A stretch of DNA of 64,000 nucleotides from Bdellovibrionales bacterium (GTDB taxonomy: Bacteria > Bdellovibrionota > Bdellovibrionia > Bdellovibrionales > Bdellovibrionaceae): NCBI GenBank assembly GCA_038323665.1, contig JBBQHD010000003.1, forward strand, positions 6,575 to 70,574, written 5' to 3'. Below are positions 4,522 to 46,870 of the stretch, piece by piece. The notes below the pieces were generated by a model. That model was not told the origin of the DNA and ran no database searches. It saw nothing but the letters and a program-made list of their open reading frames with translations. How positions within the stretch are numbered: position 1 is the stretch's first letter; each line of letters starts with the position of its first letter. Both the position numbers and the translations under genes were made by a program.

Positions 4522-4729
4522 AAAAAAACCTCTATCTAAAAATAAAACTTCAAAAAATATATTACTATCAATAGAAAATCCCAGCAAATTTAAGAAGAAA
4601 AAATAACCCATAATGAAAAAAGACTCAAATCCGTCAAAAAGTTAGACAGAAAAAAATTTCATTCACAGAAAAACAAAATGCCGCTGCCATCGAATCCAAA
4701 TAAAAAGATCAGCAATGTAAATTTATAAT

Positions 4730-4956
4730 TTTCGGGTTTTAAGTTAGAGTTTACTAATTAGTATTTTTAATTCTTAAGTCTGCACCGCTAGGGCTGGGCG
4801 TTTTCCGCAAATACCTCAAAAAAGCGGGACGCGTCCGCCGTAACCGGCGGTTTTTGGAGGGCAGGAGCCCGCGTTTTGCGGAAAGCGCCCAGCCCTAGCG
4901 GTGCAGACTTAAGAATTAAAAATACTAATTAGTAAACTCTAACTTAAAACCCGAAA
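4730..4956. repeat. long-hairpin element, copy 1 (90-nt conserved core at 4799-4888, inverted relative to copies 2 and 3; ~70-bp perfect inverted arms)
   Basis: Left arm tttcgggttttaagttagag...gctagggctgggcg is the exact reverse complement of the right arm. The core matches the cores at 27384-27473 and 44726-44815. Confidence 0.9.
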
Positions 4957-4980
4957 CTCCAAATTATATTGCAGATCTTT

Positions 4981-5388
4981 TTACTTGGGTTCGATGATCA
5001 GGCGGATGCCTTCGACTTTGCGGATGCGAAACAACTGCCCCTTACGAATCGGCAGTTTGCTGAAGACTTTCCAGCGAGCACCTTTGTAAATCATATGCGA
5101 TTCAATTTCTGCTTCCATGTCTTTATCGCTGACGATGCCTTCGGGAAATTCTTCGGCCGAAGTTTTGCCGTCGGGTAAAATAAATCGGTTTAAAAAGAAA
5201 ACTCCCAAAATGGAAAACAAACTGAATAAGGTGATTTGGCCGGTCAGGGAAACAAAACCCATTGAGCTAGAAATGGCGGTCAGCAATGCGGCCAGGCCCA
5301 AAAACAGCAAATGCAAATTGCCGCCGAATGCTTCTGCGGAAATCATTGAAATGCCGATGGTAAGCCAAAGCCAAATACTCCAGTCCAT
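4981..5388 (-). CDS. NfeD-family membrane protein
   Basis: Hydrophobic N-terminal half plus a C-terminal OB-like tail (YKGARWKVFSKLPIRKGQLFRIRKVEGIRLIIEP), as is typical of NfeD. Confidence 0.65.
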   Translation of the reverse strand: MDWSIWLWLTIGISMISAEAFGGNLHLLFLGLAALLTAISSSMGFVSLTGQITLFSLFSILGVFFLNRFILPDGKTSAEEFPEGIVSDKDMEAEIESHMIYKGARWKVFSKLPIRKGQLFRIRKVEGIRLIIEPK

Positions 5389-17545: not shown

Positions 17546-18138
17546 TGCGCCACGTCCTTTAAACTGCGCGCTTCTTCCACCAAGACAATATAGCCTGTGA
17601 CAGGATTGAAAATAAAAGTCCAAACTTTTGGCGGCGAAGATTTATCGGCAATTTGTAAGGCCGAGGCTTCGACAAATCCTTCCGGAGAAAAATAAATATA
17701 ACCCAAATTTTCTTTGATCGGGGCTTCGCGGTGGATGCTTTCCAGTTGCAAGAAACGTAAATTGGCGGGCAACATTTTTTTCTTTTTATTTAGCAAGGTA
17801 TCTAGTTCAAAAGGGGATTTTTTTTCTTTGTCTTCGTCTTTTATATTATTCGGGTCGATGGTGGGATCGACTTTGGTAATTCCGGAAGCTTTTTCGACCC
17901 AATAAGCGCCTTTTTCTGGATCAAAATCGATCACCAGTCGCATCACCGAATTGGTCATGCGCGCTCGGTGACGAATTTCCCGGCCCAACACAAGCAAATG
18001 GCGGGCAATGGGTTTTAGTTTGGTTTCAGATTTAAAAAGCCTGGGCGCCGCAACCGCAATCATGGCGCCAATGATTGCCAACACAACCATAATTTCAACA
18101 AGAGTAAATCCGGCTTTGGATCTTGCAGCGTTCAGCAT
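17542..18138 (-). CDS. gspH: type II secretion minor pseudopilin GspH
   Basis: SKAGFTLVEIMVVLAIIGAM prepilin motif. Size and position fit GspH. Confidence 0.75.
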   Translation of the reverse strand: MLNAARSKAGFTLVEIMVVLAIIGAMIAVAAPRLFKSETKLKPIARHLLVLGREIRHRARMTNSVMRLVIDFDPEKGAYWVEKASGITKVDPTIDPNNIKDEDKEKKSPFELDTLLNKKKKMLPANLRFLQLESIHREAPIKENLGYIYFSPEGFVEASALQIADKSSPPKVWTFIFNPVTGYIVLVEEARSLKDVAQ

Positions 18139-18249
18139 GGTTTAAGTATGACAAAGAAAAATGGCCGGTGCACGAGCTTTGATGGGTTTATGTGGGGATG
18201 GCGTTTCGGGGAATTTAAAGCTAAATTTTTGGGATGAAATGAGGCGCTA

Positions 18250-19164
18250 ATGAGAGATTTCTTTTTTGTGAGCTTAATGTTTTGTTCGGTTCAAGTTCGA
18301 GCAGAAGATCCTAGATCCTGTCAGATTAATGCGCCGAACTGCCTTGTCCCGGAAAAACCGACGGACCGCATTCGATCTTTAGCGATTCAGTTTTCCATGG
18401 GAAAGATCTTGCCCGTGGCGGTGCAGGAACATTTAACAGAGAAAAAGATAATTTTTGTCGGAGAAATGCATGGGTCGCAGGAAATTCCACAATTTTTTGC
18501 ACAACTGGCAGAGTCTTTGTCGAGCAAGAAAAATAGAATATTGGTTGTCTTGGAAATTCCCAATTCATCGCAAAAGAATATCGATGCATTTTTAAAAACA
18601 GGGAACAAAGATTTATTGCGCAAAGATTTATTTTTTTCCCGAGGTAAAAATTCAGACGGTCGCAGCAGTCAAGCAATGGTCCGCTTGCTGCAAAAACTAT
18701 CCAAAATTAAAAATGTGGAAGTCTTTTGTATGGATGAGGATATGGGATATTCGGGAAATGGCCAAGATAGAGATACTTTCATGGCAAAAAGTATTTATAA
18801 AAAAATGCGAGGCTTTGACCAAACATTGGTATTGTCTGGAAACATTCACAGTCGGTTAGAAATGGGATATCCAGGTAATGAAAGTTATCGTCCCATGGCC
18901 TATGAACTAAAAAATCTGGCATCGGAATTAAAGGCAGATCAGATTTTCAATATTTTCATGCGTTTTAAAAATCTTAATATCTGGGCTGCAATGAACAATC
19001 GGGCCGGAGTGCACAGATTTTCCGTTAGCACCGAATATTCTCAAGCAGTGCCATGGGAAAGTTATTTTTTAGTCGAGGAAGGTTTTTCGGATAAAACTTT
19101 GCACGATGGACATAAGGGCACAGTATTTATTCGCACAACCAAGCCGTCGTTTCCATTTAAGTGA
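18250..19164 (+). CDS. secreted protein, possibly ChaN/Tiki-superfamily (GEMHG motif)
   Basis: Signal peptide, then KKIIFVGEMHGSQEIPQFF, which resembles the GExH motif of ChaN/erythromycin-esterase-like proteins. The family call is tentative. Confidence 0.35.
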   Translation: MRDFFFVSLMFCSVQVRAEDPRSCQINAPNCLVPEKPTDRIRSLAIQFSMGKILPVAVQEHLTEKKIIFVGEMHGSQEIPQFFAQLAESLSSKKNRILVVLEIPNSSQKNIDAFLKTGNKDLLRKDLFFSRGKNSDGRSSQAMVRLLQKLSKIKNVEVFCMDEDMGYSGNGQDRDTFMAKSIYKKMRGFDQTLVLSGNIHSRLEMGYPGNESYRPMAYELKNLASELKADQIFNIFMRFKNLNIWAAMNNRAGVHRFSVSTEYSQAVPWESYFLVEEGFSDKTLHDGHKGTVFIRTTKPSFPFK

Positions 19165-19574
19165 AATTGTTGTGGGCTTTAGCCAGTTCTTCGTGGGCAT
19201 GCCTAGATGCAAATCAAAATTAAACCAAATAGGTTTTAGTCGAACTGCAAACACACTTTCGGATATTTGATTAATTCTAAATTATTAATTTATCGTTGCG
19301 TCATAAAAATTTTTTAAATAAAAATTGTTTGACGCTCTTTTCTATCCCTTCTTCGTTTGCAATTTGGCTTTCAAAATTCTGGGGAAATGTAGGCCTTGCC
19401 TGCAGTAGAGGGCTATTATTCAATCAAAATCGCGAATCGGCTCGCGCAGAAGTTTTTCAGAAGATCGTTTGATAAAACGAATTTATGAACGAAAAATTGT
19501 CGCTGTAAAACCTGTGATATAAAAAATTCTACCGTTTCACCTCCGCAGCGGAGGCAATGTGAAAGGATTTTTAA

Positions 19575-20581
19575 ATGGAATTATTGCGAGAGTCTAAAGT
19601 GAAGTCATCGATAGATAGAATAATCTTAGGAATTCAGGCTGAAGCTGTTTCTGAGAATAATTATAACAAAGAAATTTTAAAGACAGCTAACGTCGATAGC
19701 AATCCAGATTCCCTTATCTCTGAAATCAGAAAAATTGCCAAAGCAGAACAAGGATTTACTTTGCGAGTGATCGAACTGATTTCCCAAGTTGATCAGCGCA
19801 AACTGTTTTATCGTCTTGGATTTCCTAGTTTGTATGATTTCGTAACTCAAGATTTGGGTTACGAGCCTGCGTCGGCAATGCGCCGGATTCAAGCTGCCAG
19901 ACTGTTGCAGGATTTGCCGGAAGTGAAAGAAAAAATCGAAGCCAAGGTTTTGAATCTGACGGTGATTTCGAAGGCGCAAAGTTATTTTCGTAAGAAAGAT
20001 CTGACCATCGAAAACAAACGCGAAATTTTAAAATCTTTGGAACATCAATCTGCTCGCGAAGCTGAGTTGACCTTGGTGAAACTAGACCCCTTGTGCAAAT
20101 TCCCGCGCAGGAAAAGCAAAGACCGCTTTCTGAAGAATTTGTGGAACATAAGTTTGTCATGAATGCTGAAACTCAGAAAAAATTGGATCAAATCAAGCTT
20201 TGGATGTCGCACCAAAACCCAGATTTATCGACCGCAAAGTTATTTGAAATTTTGGTGGATCAGGAATTTAAAAAACTTTCGAAACAGCGGGAATCTAAAA
20301 CTACTTCAGCGCCAGAGCCGGCCATTCCTTCGGCCGAAACAAATCTTACCTCCGCTGCGGAGGTAAAAACCGCAAGTCGGTTTATTTCTGCAGAAACCAA
20401 GCGCGCGGTTTATCAGCGGGACCAAGGCTGTTGCCAATACAGGAATTCACAGACTGGCGAACAATGCCGATCCAAATACCAAATTCAGTTTGATCATATC
20501 ATTCGATTTCGTGACGGTGGATCTTGTGACAAAGAAAATATCCGATTGATGTGTGCTCGGCACAATCGATTGCGGGGCTAG
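19575..20581 (+). pseudogene. HNH endonuclease (DUF222-like N-domain), divergent copy C, frameshifted near 20090-20110
   Basis: Two overlapping ORFs (19575..20162 and 20093..20581) together align end to end with the intact paralogue at 32200..33411. The C terminus carries the HNH motif CCQYRNSQTGEQCRSKYQIQFDHIIRFRDGG...NIRLMCARHN. Confidence 0.7.
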
Positions 20582-20602
20582 CAATGCCAACCCAAACCAA
20601 AA

Positions 20603-27293: not shown

Positions 27294-27564
27294 TTTCCCC
27301 CAAGTTTTGGCAGTTTTTTCGGATTTTGAAAAATTCCGATTCTAAATAAGCAGTTCAATTTTAGTTTACTCAAATGCGGTAGAGCGCTTTCCGCAAAACG
27401 CGGGCTCCTGCCCTCCAACGACCGCCCCGTAGGGCGGACGCCTCCGGCTTCGTTGAGGTATTTGCGGAAAACGTTCTACCGCATTTGAGTAAACTAAAAT
27501 TGAACTGCTTATTTAGAATCGGAATTTTTCAAAAGTCAGAAATACTGCCAAGACTTGGGGGAAA
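27294..27564. repeat. long-hairpin element, copy 2 (core 27384-27473; perfect inner arms 27324-27382 / 27476-27534; degenerate outer arms)
   Basis: The inner 59-bp arms are exact reverse complements. The outer ~30 bp still pair, with a few mismatches (cccccaagtTttggcagtT... versus ...). The core aligns without gaps to the other two copies. Confidence 0.9.
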
Positions 27565-30640: not shown

Positions 30641-30800
30641 TTCATGGGACGCGCGTTATCGGATTTTTTGCGATCTTTAAAAAAGAAAAAACTTCGCCTC
30701 AGATCGAACACAGCGCGAGCATTACCGGCGCCGGCAGTAAAATTCGCTGCGCTTTTCCAAGCTTGCGGGAACCAGACGATCTAGCTATCTTATCTGCGAA

Positions 30801-32199: not shown

Positions 32200-33411
32200 C
32201 TAACCACGATCGCGATTGTGCTTCCCGCAAAGCAGCCGCAAATTTTCCACCGAGTTTTCACCCAAATGGCGAAATGGATGAACATGATCAAATTGAATTT
32301 GATAACGAGATTCGCATTTTTTCTGAGTGCCAGGATCAACAAACTGGCAACAGCCTTGGTCGCGCTGCCAAACAAGTTTTTTTACCGATGCCGATATATA
32401 ACGAGATCGTTTTTGGCTGGGTTTATTGTGGGCGTGTCTTTGTAAGGTGATGGGACTAAGTTTTTCTTTTGAATCTTCGCTGAGAGGTTCGGCGCCGGTA
32501 ATGCTCGCATCCTGTTCGATTTGAGAAGGATCAGCCGATTTATTTTGAAGGGACTTATTTTGCGGAGATTGATCTTTAATGGATTTATCTTGGCCGGGTT
32601 TATCTTGAACCGATTTCTTTTTAGCTAACTGTCCATGCAGTTTTTCAACCATAACTTTGAAAAACTGCGCCTGGGTCATATCAGGATTCTGGTGCGACAT
32701 CCAAAGTTTCAGTTCATCCATTTTTTCTTTTGTCTCGTTATCTATTACAAAGCGAAGTTCAATTAAGTTTTCAGATAGGATTTTTTCTTGTTCTTTGGAT
32801 TTCAAACAAAGTTCAGGTGCAAGTTTAAATAATTCTTTCTCGGCTTCGCGGGTTGACTTATTTTCCAGTTTTTTAAAAAGCTCGGTTTTTTCTGCAATCG
32901 AGATCTTCTTACCAGAATCGCTAGCTTTCTTATTTAAGAAATTCTGACCCTGACTGACCACCGATAAACTTAAAGAACGATCCGCAATTTTCTTCCTTAA
33001 TTCAGGAATTTCAGAAATCGCACGAGCTGCTTGAATTCTGCGCATGGCCGAAGACGGCTCATAGCCTAAATCTTTGGTTACAAAATCGAACAGCGAACTA
33101 AATCCTAATTTCAGAAAAATCTTTCTTCGGTTGATTTCAGCAATCAGCTCGATCACTTGCAAAGTTAGATCTTGTTCGTTTTTGGCAGCTTTCCTGATTT
33201 CCGCGATCAGCGCCCCGTTATCCAGGGATTTGATAGTTTCATCTTTCGACAAAGATTTGGTTTCAATTGAGATGCCTTTGTTTGAGGGGTTTTTAACTTC
33301 AGGAGATTTTTTTTCGAGTGAAATACTTTCGCGCGAAGTATTTCGAACTTCAGATAGTTCAGAACAAAATTCCAATTGAACTTCTTTCGAGTAATCATAT
33401 TCTTCCAGCAC
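32200..33411 (-). CDS. HNH endonuclease with DUF222-like N-domain, intact copy A (403 aa)
   Basis: DUF222-like core (LGFSSLFDFVTKDLGYEPSSAMRRIQAARAI) and a C-terminal HNH motif (CCQFVDPGTQKKCESRYQIQFDHVHPFRHLGENSVENLRLLCGKHN). GTG start. Confidence 0.8.
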   Translation of the reverse strand: MLEEYDYSKEVQLEFCSELSEVRNTSRESISLEKKSPEVKNPSNKGISIETKSLSKDETIKSLDNGALIAEIRKAAKNEQDLTLQVIELIAEINRRKIFLKLGFSSLFDFVTKDLGYEPSSAMRRIQAARAISEIPELRKKIADRSLSLSVVSQGQNFLNKKASDSGKKISIAEKTELFKKLENKSTREAEKELFKLAPELCLKSKEQEKILSENLIELRFVIDNETKEKMDELKLWMSHQNPDMTQAQFFKVMVEKLHGQLAKKKSVQDKPGQDKSIKDQSPQNKSLQNKSADPSQIEQDASITGAEPLSEDSKEKLSPITLQRHAHNKPSQKRSRYISASVKKLVWQRDQGCCQFVDPGTQKKCESRYQIQFDHVHPFRHLGENSVENLRLLCGKHNRDRG

Positions 33412-33655
33412 ACATCCTCATTTCCACTTCAAGATCGAAGTAGAAAAAACTTATCATAGGTTTTTAAAATGCAAATTTCGCGTTATTCAAGAATAACAAA
33501 TGCGCAAAGCAAAGCCTGGCCTAAACGCACGAATCGGGCCATTGGCGTAGGCTTATAAAAAATTAGAAAAAACAGCTTTCCTGAAAAAAATAATTTAAAT
33601 TAGGCGTATTTAATCGATAAGAAAACTCGTCAATATTTTTTATTTTTTAACGCCA
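33412..33655 (-). repeat. conserved ~240-bp leader of the HNH gene family (copy A)
   Basis: Block-wise similarity to 46265-46505, and more distantly to 19300-19574. Confidence 0.8.
33607..33633 (-). promoter_or_regulatory. candidate sigma70-type promoter of HNH copy A
   Basis: On the minus strand: TTGACG, 15 nt, TAAATA. Both hexamers and the spacing are conserved in copy B. Confidence 0.3.
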
Positions 33656-33828
33656 GACGCGAAACCAAAGGGAACGGCGTAATTTAAAGCTAAACCCATA
33701 CCCGCAAACTATATCGCGCTGGGTATCTCGACAAAGACAAATCCAAAAGTTTGATATGGAACCATTGCGATCGGCAGAAGTGCCTCTATTGCTTGATGAA
33801 AATAATGGGCACGAAGGCCCACAACACA

Positions 33829-43448: not shown

Positions 43449-44639
43449 ATGAGCCAACAATCGAAACAGCTGCATCTTGGAAAATTTGAAATGACGCAAA
43501 AGTGGCGCACGCTTGCATTCGGATTGATGGCCATCGGTTTGCTGACTTTTGTGATCGGTTTAATGCGCAATCAAGAACGTATGTGGCCAGCTTATTTAAA
43601 TGCATTTTTCTTTTTTAGTTGTTTGGGTTTGGGCGGGTTATTTTTTACCGCGCTTCAACATGTGACGAACGCTGGTTGGTCGGTCACTATACGCAGACTT
43701 TCGGAAGGAATGGCCGCATTTATTCCATTAATTTTTATTGGTGGGTTGGTTTTATTATTCGGTTTTAGTCGATTGTATCCTTGGGCCGACCCCAATGTAA
43801 CTGACCCCGTAGTTGTGGCAAAACACGCCTATTTAAATCCAACAGCCTTTGTCATCCGCTTAATTATTTTTTGCGGCGGCTGGTTTTTATTTAAAAAACT
43901 CATCGTCGGTCATTCCGTCAAACAAGATGTGGATGGCAACGAAGAACACACAACGAAAAATGTGCCAGTTTCGATTGGTTTTATTTTATTTTTCGGGCTG
44001 TCGTTTTCGCTTTTCAGCGTCGATCTTTTAATGAGCTTACAGCCCTCATGGTACAGCACCATTTTTGGAATTTATTGTTTTTCAGGTTTGTTTCAAGCAT
44101 CGCTGGCTGTAATTGCTTTGATCCTAGTTTACTTCAAGCGCTCGGGTTTAGTGGCAGGTTATATCACCGACGAACATATGCACGATGTGGCGAAATTTAT
44201 GAAAGCCTTTACAGTTTTCTGGGCCTATATCGCCTTTTCACAATTTATGTTGATCTGGTATGCAAACATTCCCGAAGAAACCGAATATTATATTATGCGT
44301 TCGCAAGGCGGCTGGATGGCCGTGTCTTTAGGACTGTTGATCTTCCGATTTATTGTGCCCTTTGTGGCGCTGTTACCGCGCGGATTAAAACGAAACGAAA
44401 ATCACGTCATCTTGGTTTCATGTTTAATCTTAGTGATGCAATACGTAGATATTTGGTGGATGGTTTACCCAAATTTCTTCGAAGGCCAAATGACTTTCGG
44501 CCTTTGGGAAGTGGGAATCTGGGCACTGTTCGCCGGAATTTTCCTATGGACCTTGGGAACTTTCTTAAGCAAGCACTCGCTGATTCCAATTAAGGATCCG
44601 CGGATACAAGAAGCTTTGAATCATCACGTTACGTATTAA
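43449..44639 (+). CDS. actF: alternative complex III subunit ActF (ActC-related membrane subunit)
   Basis: Polytopic 396-aa protein. Last gene of the operon. Confidence 0.78.
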   Translation: MSQQSKQLHLGKFEMTQKWRTLAFGLMAIGLLTFVIGLMRNQERMWPAYLNAFFFFSCLGLGGLFFTALQHVTNAGWSVTIRRLSEGMAAFIPLIFIGGLVLLFGFSRLYPWADPNVTDPVVVAKHAYLNPTAFVIRLIIFCGGWFLFKKLIVGHSVKQDVDGNEEHTTKNVPVSIGFILFFGLSFSLFSVDLLMSLQPSWYSTIFGIYCFSGLFQASLAVIALILVYFKRSGLVAGYITDEHMHDVAKFMKAFTVFWAYIAFSQFMLIWYANIPEETEYYIMRSQGGWMAVSLGLLIFRFIVPFVALLPRGLKRNENHVILVSCLILVMQYVDIWWMVYPNFFEGQMTFGLWEVGIWALFAGIFLWTLGTFLSKHSLIPIKDPRIQEALNHHVTY

Positions 44640-44640
44640 T

Positions 44641-44901
44641 AATTCCGTTCAGTTAAGGGATTTAAATTACAAGTCAGAATTAAATTAATTTTAAATTTAC
44701 AAGTAAAGGGCCCAAATCCGACAGGGCGCTTTACACAAAACGCGGGCTCCTGCCCTCCAACGACCGCCGAATACGGCGGACGCGTCCCGCTTCGTTGAGG
44801 TATTTGCGGAAAACGCCCTATCGGATTTGGGCCCTTTACTTGTAAATTTAAAATTAATTTAATTCTGACTTGTAAGTTAAATCCCTTAACTGAACGGAAT
44901 T
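44641..44901. repeat. long-hairpin element, copy 3 (core 44726-44815; ~85-bp arms with 2 mismatches)
   Basis: aattccgttcagttaagggattt...cccaaatccgacaggg is the reverse complement of ccctatcggatttggg...cttaactgaacggaatt. The core matches copies 1 and 2. The element begins 2 nt after the actF stop. Confidence 0.9.
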
Positions 44902-44980
44902 AAACGTATTGAATCACGGAGCAACGTATCTACGATCTGTTAAATATTCAGCGGTAAATTATTTATTATGGTGTAGCCAC

Positions 44981-46264
44981 TTAATCACGATCTCGGTTGT
45001 GCTTCCCGCAAAGCAAGCGCAAATTTTCCACCGAGTTTTCACCCAGATGTCGAAACGCTTGGACGTGGTCGAATTGAATTTGGTAACGAGATTCACATTT
45101 TTTCTGAGTGTCGGGATCGATAAACTGACAGCAACCTTGGTCGCGTTACCAAACCAGCTTTTTTACCGAAGCCGAGACATAGCGAGATCGCTTTTGGCCG
45201 GGTTTATTTTGGGCGTGTCTTTGCGCGGCGATGGGACTTGGGTTTTCTTTTGGATTTTTGGAAAGAGGTTCGGCGCAGGTAATGCTCGCATCCTGTTCGA
45301 CTTGAGAAGCATCATTCGATTTAACTTGGTTGGATTTCTTTTGCGGAGATTTATCTTTAATGGATTTATCTTGGGCGCAACTATCTTGAACCGATTTCTT
45401 TTTAGCTAACTGCGCATGTAGTTTTTCAACCATTACTTTAAAAAACTGACCCTGGGTCATATCGGGGTTTTGGTGCGACATCCAAAGTTTCAGTTCATCC
45501 ATTTTTTCTTTGGTCTCGGAATCTATTACAAAACGAAGTTCCGTTAAATTTTCAGATAGGACTTTTTCTTGTTCCTTGAATTTTAAACAAAGCTCGGGTG
45601 CAAGTTTAAATAATTCTTTCTCGGCTTCGCGGGTGGATTTATTTTCCAGTTTTTTAAAAAGCTCGGTTTTTTCCGCAATCGAGATCTTCTTGCCAGAATC
45701 ACTGGCTTTTTTATTTAAGAAATTCTGACCTTGCGAGACAACCGATAAGCTTAAAGACTTATCCGCAATTTTTTCCCTTAACTCAGGAATTTCAGAAATC
45801 GCACGAGCTGCCTGGATTCTGCGCATGGCCGAAGACGGTTCATATCCCAAATCTTTGGTTACAAAATCAAATAATGAACTAAAGCCAAGTTTTAGAAAAA
45901 TCTTTCTTAGGTTGATTTCAGCAATCAGCTCGATCACTTGCAAGGTTAGATCCTGTTCGTTTTTTGCAGCGTTCCTGATTTCAGCGACAAGTGCGCTGTT
46001 ATCCAGGAATTTGATAGCTTCGTCTTTCGACAAAGGTTTCGCTTCAGCAAAGGATTTATTTTCAACAAAAAATTCTGTTTCCGCGAAGGGCATCATTTCC
46101 GCAAAGAATTTCTTTTCGCGCGAGCTGCTTTTGCTTGAAGAATTTCCTACTTCAAGCAGCTTCTCCTCTGTCGAAATACTTGCACGCCCAGTATTCCCAA
46201 CTTCACGATCGACAGGCCAAAACTCTAACTGAACTTCCTTCGAGTAATCATACTCATCCAGCAC
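44981..46264 (-). pseudogene. HNH endonuclease (DUF222-like), copy B, with an in-frame TAA at 45146-45148 that cuts off the HNH domain
   Basis: The 372-codon ORF ends ...SASVKKLVW(stop). The same frame continues RDQGCCQFIDPDTQKKCESRYQIQFDHV...LLCGKHNRDRD to a stop at 44981-44983. The intact paralogue has CAG where this copy has TAA. Confidence 0.75.
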
Positions 46265-46505
46265 ACATCCTCATTTCTACTTCGATTTAAGAAGTAGAAA
46301 AAACTTATCACAGGTTTTAAAAATGCAATTTTCAGGTTTCCTCAGATCGCGAATGCGCAAATTAAACTTCAGTCTAAACGCACGAATTGGACCACCAACG
46401 AAAGCTTATGAAAAATTAGAAAAAACATCTTCCCAGTCAGAAATAATTTAAATTAGGCGTATTTAATCACTCAGAAAACTCGTCAATAATTTTAATTTAT
46501 TAACG
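46265..46505 (-). repeat. conserved ~240-bp leader of the HNH gene family (copy B)
   Basis: Block-wise similarity to 33412-33655. Confidence 0.8.
46460..46486 (-). promoter_or_regulatory. candidate sigma70-type promoter of HNH copy B
   Basis: Same TTGACG, 15 nt, TAAATA arrangement as copy A. Confidence 0.3.
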
Positions 46506-46870
46506 CAAGATGCGATCCCAAAACGAACGACGCAGTTTTATATTCACGTCAGCTTCCCACACAAAGCAGCCGCAAATTTTCCACCGAGTGATCGCCCAAC
46601 TGCCGAAACGGGTAAACATGATCAAATTGAATTTGGTAACAAGGCCCGTATTTTTTCCGCGTGCCGGGATCCACGAACCGGCAGCAGCCCCGGTCCCGCG
46701 GCCAAACAAGTTTTCCATAAGCGAAACCGATATATAGCGAGATCGCTTTGGGTTTGTTGCCGGCCTGCCTTTGTAAGTTGTTGGGGCTTGGATTTTCTTT
46801 GTGAATCTTCGAAAAGAGGTTCGGCGCAGACAGTGCTCGCATTGTGTTTGAATTGGGAATCAAGCCGCAA
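46500..46870 (-). pseudogene. 3'-terminal fragment of a further HNH endonuclease copy (frameshifted)
   Basis: Two short ORFs in different frames (46622..46903 and 46549..46863) align to the last ~120 residues of the family: ...CAEPLFEDS... then GKLVWPRDRGCCRFVDPGTRKKYGPCYQIQFDHVYPFRQLGDHSVENLRLLC. Confidence 0.7.

Follow-up and report, generated by a model that had tools for sequence, protein, structure and literature searches.

Three intergenic sites in a 64-kb window (the whole stretch of Bdellovibrionales DNA that we analyzed, 64,000 nucleotides) carry the same structured, GC-rich 90-nt core atop a long, near-perfect inverted repeat, giving palindromes of 260–310 bp at positions 4688–4996 (copy 1, core on the minus strand), 27294–27564 (copy 2, core on the plus strand), and 44640–44902 (copy 3, core on the plus strand). 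The explanation that we favor, at a probability of roughly 45%, is that these sites are copies of a small, dispersed module that forms a hairpin, and that its terminal stem seeds DNA synthesis by fold-back (template switching), palindromizing and re-homogenizing the flank. The element family is real, unusual, and apparently undescribed, and is known from two Bdellovibrionales lineages.

The window is ordinary, Bdellovibrio-like chromosome that includes a type II secretion operon, ThrRS, SSB, and cytochrome c biogenesis genes; the closest named GspC homologues come from Bdellovibrio or Pseudobdellovibrionaceae, at no more than 51% identity. A repeat search returned paired arms at 4730–4811/4875–4956 for copy 1 (82 nt, 99% identity), 27294–27397/27461–27564 for copy 2 (104 nt, 92%), and 44640–44739/44803–44902 for copy 3 (100 nt, 95%), the arms of every copy being exactly 63 nt apart. 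Elsewhere in the window, no closely spaced inverted repeat exceeded 25 nt, and the repeat search combined with a covariance model of the core found neither core-less long inverted repeats nor extra or arm-less cores there. A 22-mer from the core occurs three times in the window, compared with zero expected from 100 shuffles. GC content is 60–66% in the cores, 30–35% (~32%) in the arms, and 42% in the window as a whole. Copy 1 separates two minus-strand genes, following the stop of an NfeD-like gene and preceding the start of its neighbor; gspC and a DUF4399 gene start divergently on either side of copy 2; and copy 3 lies directly 3′ of the stop of a 396-aa open reading frame (ORF) (43449–44639, ending right before the left arm), with an HNH pseudogene whose 3′ end is 79 nt from its right arm.

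The original prediction, made from the sequence of the window, described three loci with a common 90-nt core that aligns without gaps, and placed the copy 1 core at 4799–4888 on the minus strand. This was confirmed: the cores of copy 1 (116 bits against the covariance model), copy 2 (27384–27473, plus strand, 116 bits), and copy 3 (44726–44815, plus strand, 112 bits) align gaplessly at 89–95% identity, with a mean column identity of 95%. Whether folded as DNA or as RNA, all copies share one branched hairpin, consisting of an outer stem with a C·A mismatch conserved among the copies, mini-hairpin A (GGGC-TCCT-GCCC), a middle stem (AACGA/TCGTT), an apical stem closed by an NNTA loop (CCGCCG-NNTA-CGGCGG), and mini-hairpin B (GCG-TCC-CGC). 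Shuffled sequence folds less well than the core (z = −3 to −8 for the core), and the core structure pairs in 97.6% of alignment cells, compared with 42–50% when the partners are slid. Within helices 3–5, each of the four variable pairs has substitutions in both partners and no pair is broken, indicating that the core strand is constrained to fold, as single-stranded DNA (ssDNA) or as RNA. The copy 3 core carries two uncompensated changes in the outer stem, and in copy 1 the middle stem is replaced by AAAAA/TTTTT, a compensated change. This copy 1 variant (4823–4850) also gives rise to terminator-like sites, each a hairpin followed by a T-run, on both strands of a copy that sits between two tandem genes. 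Homology among the copies continues for ~8–15 nt beside the core, with changes mirrored in both arms; the conserved module comprises the 90-nt core plus this stem on each side (~108 nt), and it has its own imperfect terminal inverted repeat of ~24 nt.

The arms are 86–110 nt long across the three copies. In pairwise alignments, in either orientation, arms of different copies score no better than shuffles, indicating that the arms are locus-specific. The expectation that arms would differ at every site was therefore upheld in the three copies, as was the description of the element as a conserved tip on unique arms, the reverse of a MITE. The further claim that the arms are unrelated beyond ~10 nt next to the core stands as far as the shuffle-level scores go, but the homologous stretch is 8–15 nt and its changes are mirrored between the arms.

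Within a copy, the arms of copies 1 and 2 have two layers. For copy 1, the inner left arm (4730–4798) is the perfect complement of the inner right arm (4889–4956), 68–69 nt without a mismatch, in line with the ~70-bp perfect arms first described; the repeat is longer than had been thought, however, and in a gapped alignment extends over 4688–4996 through outer blocks of ~40 nt (left, 4688–4729; right, 4957–4996) that have diverged to ~80–86% identity, with mismatches and two indels. For copy 2, the inner left arm (27324–27383) and inner right arm (27474–27534) match perfectly over 60 nt, position 27474 pairing as G-T with the core's first base, and the outer blocks of ~30 nt (27294–27323 and 27535–27564) are diverged, with mismatches and indels. 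The similarity between the paired outer blocks of copies 1 and 2 was reached by 0 of 500 shuffles, and extension of the arms beyond 4688/4996 and 27294/27564 was not significant. The arms of copy 3 (44640–44725, 86 nt, and 44816–44902) differ by two mismatches only, too few to show a gradient with distance.

All nine arm-to-arm differences of copy 1 fall in the outer third (P ~1e-4 under a uniform model), as do all six of copy 2 (P ~1e-3, same model). The inner arms contain no mismatch and no G·U-type wobble, and mismatches inside the core persist in every copy. This clustering of differences at the outer ends points away from selection for RNA pairing and towards a copying process that acts on DNA and is anchored at the core. 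Both arms of copy 2 also contain a weak sigma-70-like match (TTGGCA, 16 nt, AAAAAT), at 27307–27334 on the plus strand and 27551–27524 on the minus strand; the two face inwards to the core and, if functional, would drive convergent transcription across it.

The direction of copying can be read at copy 1, where the outer right arm covers the last 13 nt and the stop (4981–4996, I-E-P-K-stop) of the NfeD-like coding sequence (4981–5388, minus strand). The C terminus of this protein, EGIRLIIEPK, matches the consensus EGIxLxxEPx of its homologue family, drawn from 1.8 billion representative proteins, and is therefore native, which makes the gene-side arm of copy 1 the ancestral one. The outer left arm holds CATCGAATCCAAATAA, an inverted and mutated pseudo-copy of the last NfeD-like codons and stop. 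Since one arm has the native codons and its partner a pseudo-copy, the partner was templated on the local flank, bearing out the proposal that one arm is made from the other. For copy 3, a weak, decayed extension of the arm into the upstream coding sequence is possible (P ~0.02). The ancestral arm lies 5′ of the core strand that reads CGCGGGCTCCTGCCC, firmly for copy 1 and at P ~0.02 for copy 3. Across the three copies and one distant metagenomic relative (contig L002, below), the sequences establish the direction of copying firmly for copy 1 alone.

The source is a metagenome-assembled genome (MAG), and palindromes are a known class of artifact, a combination that would fit a chimeric fold-back read or an untrimmed hairpin adapter. 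We give an assembly or library artifact of this kind very little credence. In an independent Logan assembly (run SRR19962015, k = 31), contig L005 contains gspC together with the left flank and arm of copy 2 and stops at 27353, exactly k − 1 = 30 nt past the start of the perfect block at 27324, the point at which a graph with all 31-mers distinct has to branch. An adapter would be identical everywhere, but the cores differ by 5–10% and carry compensatory changes, and on these grounds we rejected a PacBio-type hairpin adapter. The outer arms have also diverged, intact genes continue on either side, and a related element is present in an unrelated metagenome. The break in L005, the diverged and covarying cores, and the intact flanking genes exclude an artifact for practical purposes.

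The assessment of the family as unrecognised held throughout our searches. No Rfam family matched the element at gathering cutoffs or at relaxed E-values, the only threshold match in the window being a tRNA elsewhere; the relaxed scans returned only generic hairpin (microRNA-precursor) matches, far below threshold. Plasmids and phages (BLAST) and IMG/VR (two scans) gave no real match. Scanning the GTDB representative genomes, a collection that excludes the source genome, with a core 20-mer returned a single match, which we rejected as a chance match in a coding sequence of an Acidobacteriota MAG.

A metagenome scan found one real relative, on contig L002, and two more copies of the Acidobacteriota chance match. 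The L002 element has perfect AT-rich arms of 36–37 nt around a 46-nt core that shares ACGCGGGCTCCTGCCCTCC...GAGGT, displays the same junction layout, and scores 34 bits against the core covariance model (E = 9e-6); extension into outer arms was not significant at this locus. Its contig has a GC content of 41%, and the gene next to the element has Bdellovibrionales homologues. A further contig, P0121, carries a 95%-identical orthologue of this neighboring gene, beside an intergenic region of 282 nt compared with ~286 nt on L002 (1220–1505); judged by this length, the related hairpin is probably conserved there. Among relatives, the gspC loci (L007–L014) contained no element, long inverted repeat, or core motif, and two further loci (L015 and L016) lacked the element, amounting to no elements in ~115 kb of relatives' loci.

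The window also contains a repeated unit of ~1.5 kb, comprising a gene for a 403-aa protein, with an HNH nuclease motif at its C terminus, and ~270 nt of conserved upstream sequence. One unit is intact (32201–33685, minus strand), one has an in-frame TGA (44982–46538), one is a 3′ fragment (46552–46859), one is degraded (19713–20436), and one is a 36-nt fragment (30698–30733). More than 20 paralogues of the HNH protein, at 52–87% identity, lie on other NCBI contigs, presumably of the same MAG, and HNH copies interrupt gene orders that are conserved in relatives, one between gspG and gspH and one after resB; from these sequences the units look like an expanding selfish HNH gene family. The ~3 kb between gspG and the next pseudopilin gene (17624–20602) holds a ChaN-like ORF in addition to the degraded HNH copy, whereas gspG and the pseudopilin gene are contiguous in three relatives (L007, L011, and L013). 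A link between the hairpins and the HNH units is unsupported in the window, where only copy 3 adjoins a unit, at 79 nt from its right arm (44981–44902), and the other copies are at least 3 kb away.

Several known classes of small element and hairpin share part of this anatomy. Like MITEs and the small dispersed Correia, ERIC, RPE, and BOX repeats, the element is short, non-coding, intergenic, multi-copy, and hairpin-forming. A MITE, however, has conserved termini and a short direct duplication, whereas here a conserved center lies between inverted duplications of unique sequence, 86–110 nt long; the outer 70–100 nt of the arms are unrelated between copies, a flanking direct repeat occurs at one of the three copies (copy 3, 7 nt), and the window ORFs that we scanned included no transposase. 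REP and REPIN sequences, mobilized by RAYT, are likewise dispersed extragenic GC-rich hairpins, the REPINs of ~100 nt, but a REPIN has conserved REP sequences as arms and a variable loop, the opposite layout; REP palindromes of 20–40 nt bear a GTAG or CGTC tag, and we found no such conserved tag in the element and no RAYT gene in the window. PATEs, derived from IS200/IS605, carry an imperfect hairpin near either end, lack terminal inverted repeats and target-site duplications, insert 3′ of a fixed tetra- or pentanucleotide, and occur in genomes with a Y1 transposase. The core has two mini-hairpins with TCC(T) loops; the copies have no fixed flanking oligonucleotide, and the window has no Y1 transposase. 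Integron attC sites are recognized as a folded single strand with imperfect pairing and extrahelical bases, as in the core of the element; their layout is the opposite, with conserved outer R/L boxes around a variable center in 57–141 nt, in a cassette array served by an integrase. The element has no R′′/L′′-L′/R′ boxes, array, or integrase, and its neighbors are housekeeping genes. Intrinsic terminators have a short GC-rich stem and a U run at the 3′ end of a gene; of the three copies, copy 1 alone has such sites, owing to its AAAAA/TTTTT variant, and the genes on either side of copy 2 start divergently. A replicated hairpin telomere (protelomerase site), a perfect palindrome with a symmetric center, is also a poor match, given the asymmetric 63-nt center in all copies and a window with no resolvase gene.

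Other parallels concern the way in which long palindromes form. The terminal hairpins and junctions of parvoviruses and poxviruses are branched and incompletely paired, carry extrahelical mini-hairpins, lie centrally in a long inverted repeat, and self-prime. The element resembles them in having a branched hairpin with mini-hairpins amid a long inverted repeat; the viral hairpins, however, are genome ends served by nickases, and we found neither such genes nor viral matches here. In Tetrahymena rDNA, a short inverted repeat adjacent to a break gives rise to a palindrome. Palindromes are established to arise at short inverted repeats (PMC3834830, PMC7999016): in fold-back inversion and eukaryotic end-capping, a short inverted repeat with a non-palindromic spacer makes a palindrome from adjacent sequence and leaves an asymmetric center, as in the element (63 nt). 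Those events take place in eukaryotes, have no limit in extent, and mostly belong to pathology or development, whereas the arms here stop at ~100 bp in a circular bacterial chromosome. Quasipalindrome template switching at inverted repeats is likewise established in E. coli and yeast, where a nascent strand folds back and copies an arm, perfecting imperfect palindromes and homogenizing their arms (PMC7202029, PMC8604942). Arm copying of this type accounts for inner arms that are perfect and change in concert, but the known process is a sporadic point-mutation route spanning a few to tens of nucleotides and is not known to build 100-bp arms in a dispersed element.

From the observed anatomy, structural covariation, locus-specific arms, local origin of the copy 1 arm, and identity gradient, we infer both a fold-back mechanism and the core alone as the unit that spreads. 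In replication or repair, a nascent strand would snap back on the core's own terminal stem just after copying the core, template itself so as to copy the freshly made flank in inverted form, and then rejoin the original template. The locus-specific arm would date from the first such event; the core would then anchor further, shorter rounds that rewrite the inner 60–70 bp, so that the inner arms stay perfect as the outer ends decay. The end product would be a 260–310-bp intergenic palindrome able to form a cruciform, its center remaining asymmetric because the core acts as the primer and not as the stretch copied. The confinement of arm differences to the outer third in copies 1 and 2, where identity falls with distance from the center, fits repeated copying from the core outwards; perfect inner arms without wobble, next to mismatches that persist in the core, fit the core as primer; and the fully compensated substitutions in helices 3–5 indicate that single-strand folding matters. 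An arm that is a copy of native flank is seen at copy 1 only, copy 3 being suggestive, and the three loci bear no sequence signature of a nascent strand's return to the template at a naive site. Neither a bare core, an empty site, nor an intermediate was observed in the sequences covered, which counts against this model. A bolder version, possible but doubtful, is that the element represents a new class of bacterial mobile DNA, in which a self-priming ssDNA hairpin, or a hairpin capping a broken or nascent end, copies host flank on arrival into a palindrome that is then rewritten. Such hairpin mobility might be driven by the expanded HNH-endonuclease gene family (>20 copies, apparently in the same genome).

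Rather unlikely, in our view, is transposition of the whole hairpin, arms and core together, in MITE-like fashion with a short target-site duplication; its arms would either drift neutrally and stay self-complementary through within-element conversion, with only the core selected, or be donor flank picked up at each transposition. Copy 3 speaks for this model, and against fold-back synthesis, in that it looks like a hairpin inserted ready-made. A 7-nt direct repeat, ACGTATT, abuts the element on both sides (44631–44637 and 44904–44910, plus strand), has a chance of ~0.005 per locus, and is a possible target-site duplication; its right copy is followed by GA, and a hypothetical empty site would regain an in-frame TGA (frame read from sequence). 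Direct repeats of 6 nt or more are lacking at copies 1 and 2. The homologous 8–15 nt beside the core, with mirrored changes, also fit a mobile hairpin, as does the spacing at copy 2, where the spacer at the gspC locus is 440 nt, 271 of them element, and the remaining 169 nt match the 159–248 nt of the spacers in relatives; these lengths are compatible both with whole-element insertion into a 169-nt spacer and with an ancestral spacer of 259 nt in which one arm was already present. At copy 1, however, the repeat includes native coding sequence of the neighboring gene, which indicates that at least the outer layer was made in place, and the arms retain no residual similarity despite cores that are 89–95% identical. 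The scan that returned no transposase among the window ORFs also weighs against this model.

A less likely alternative again is a transcribed structured RNA, UTR-borne or stand-alone, with a tip that binds a protein and a duplex that is processed by RNase III or that stabilizes or terminates transcripts. Compensatory changes in three core helices and folding superior to shuffles would be expected of such an RNA, the forward core strand is co-directional with an adjacent gene in four of four cases, and the copy 1 variant yields terminator-like hairpins with T-runs. Copies 2 and 3 have no terminator-like features, however, and Rfam has no matching family; the 60–69-bp Watson-Crick arms, free of wobble and decaying only at their outer ends, point to copying at the DNA level, and an RNA accounts for the core but not for the origin of the arms. 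An RNA function of the core could be compatible with fold-back synthesis and with movement of the whole hairpin alike. We regard it as highly improbable that the core is a small insertion element targeting the tips of pre-existing long palindromes, as some IS do in REP/BIME loops. In each of the three copies the core does occupy the exact center of symmetry, the arms being 63 nt apart, but neither the 64-kb window nor the relatives' loci contain a core-less long palindrome, and a 110-bp palindrome that holds a gene's last codons, as at copy 1, itself needs an inverted duplication.

If fold-back synthesis seeded by the core is correct, elements of this build will be missed by repeat finders keyed to conserved termini, and would cause recurring breaks in short-read assemblies. 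They would likewise supply new terminators, insulators, or double-stranded RNA, and would offer a natural system for studying fold-back priming and the concerted evolution of inverted repeats. Bacteria are usually thought to be intolerant of palindromes of this kind. Here, a tiny dispersed repeat would turn arbitrary intergenic DNA into cruciform-capable palindromes of 260–310 bp and maintain them.
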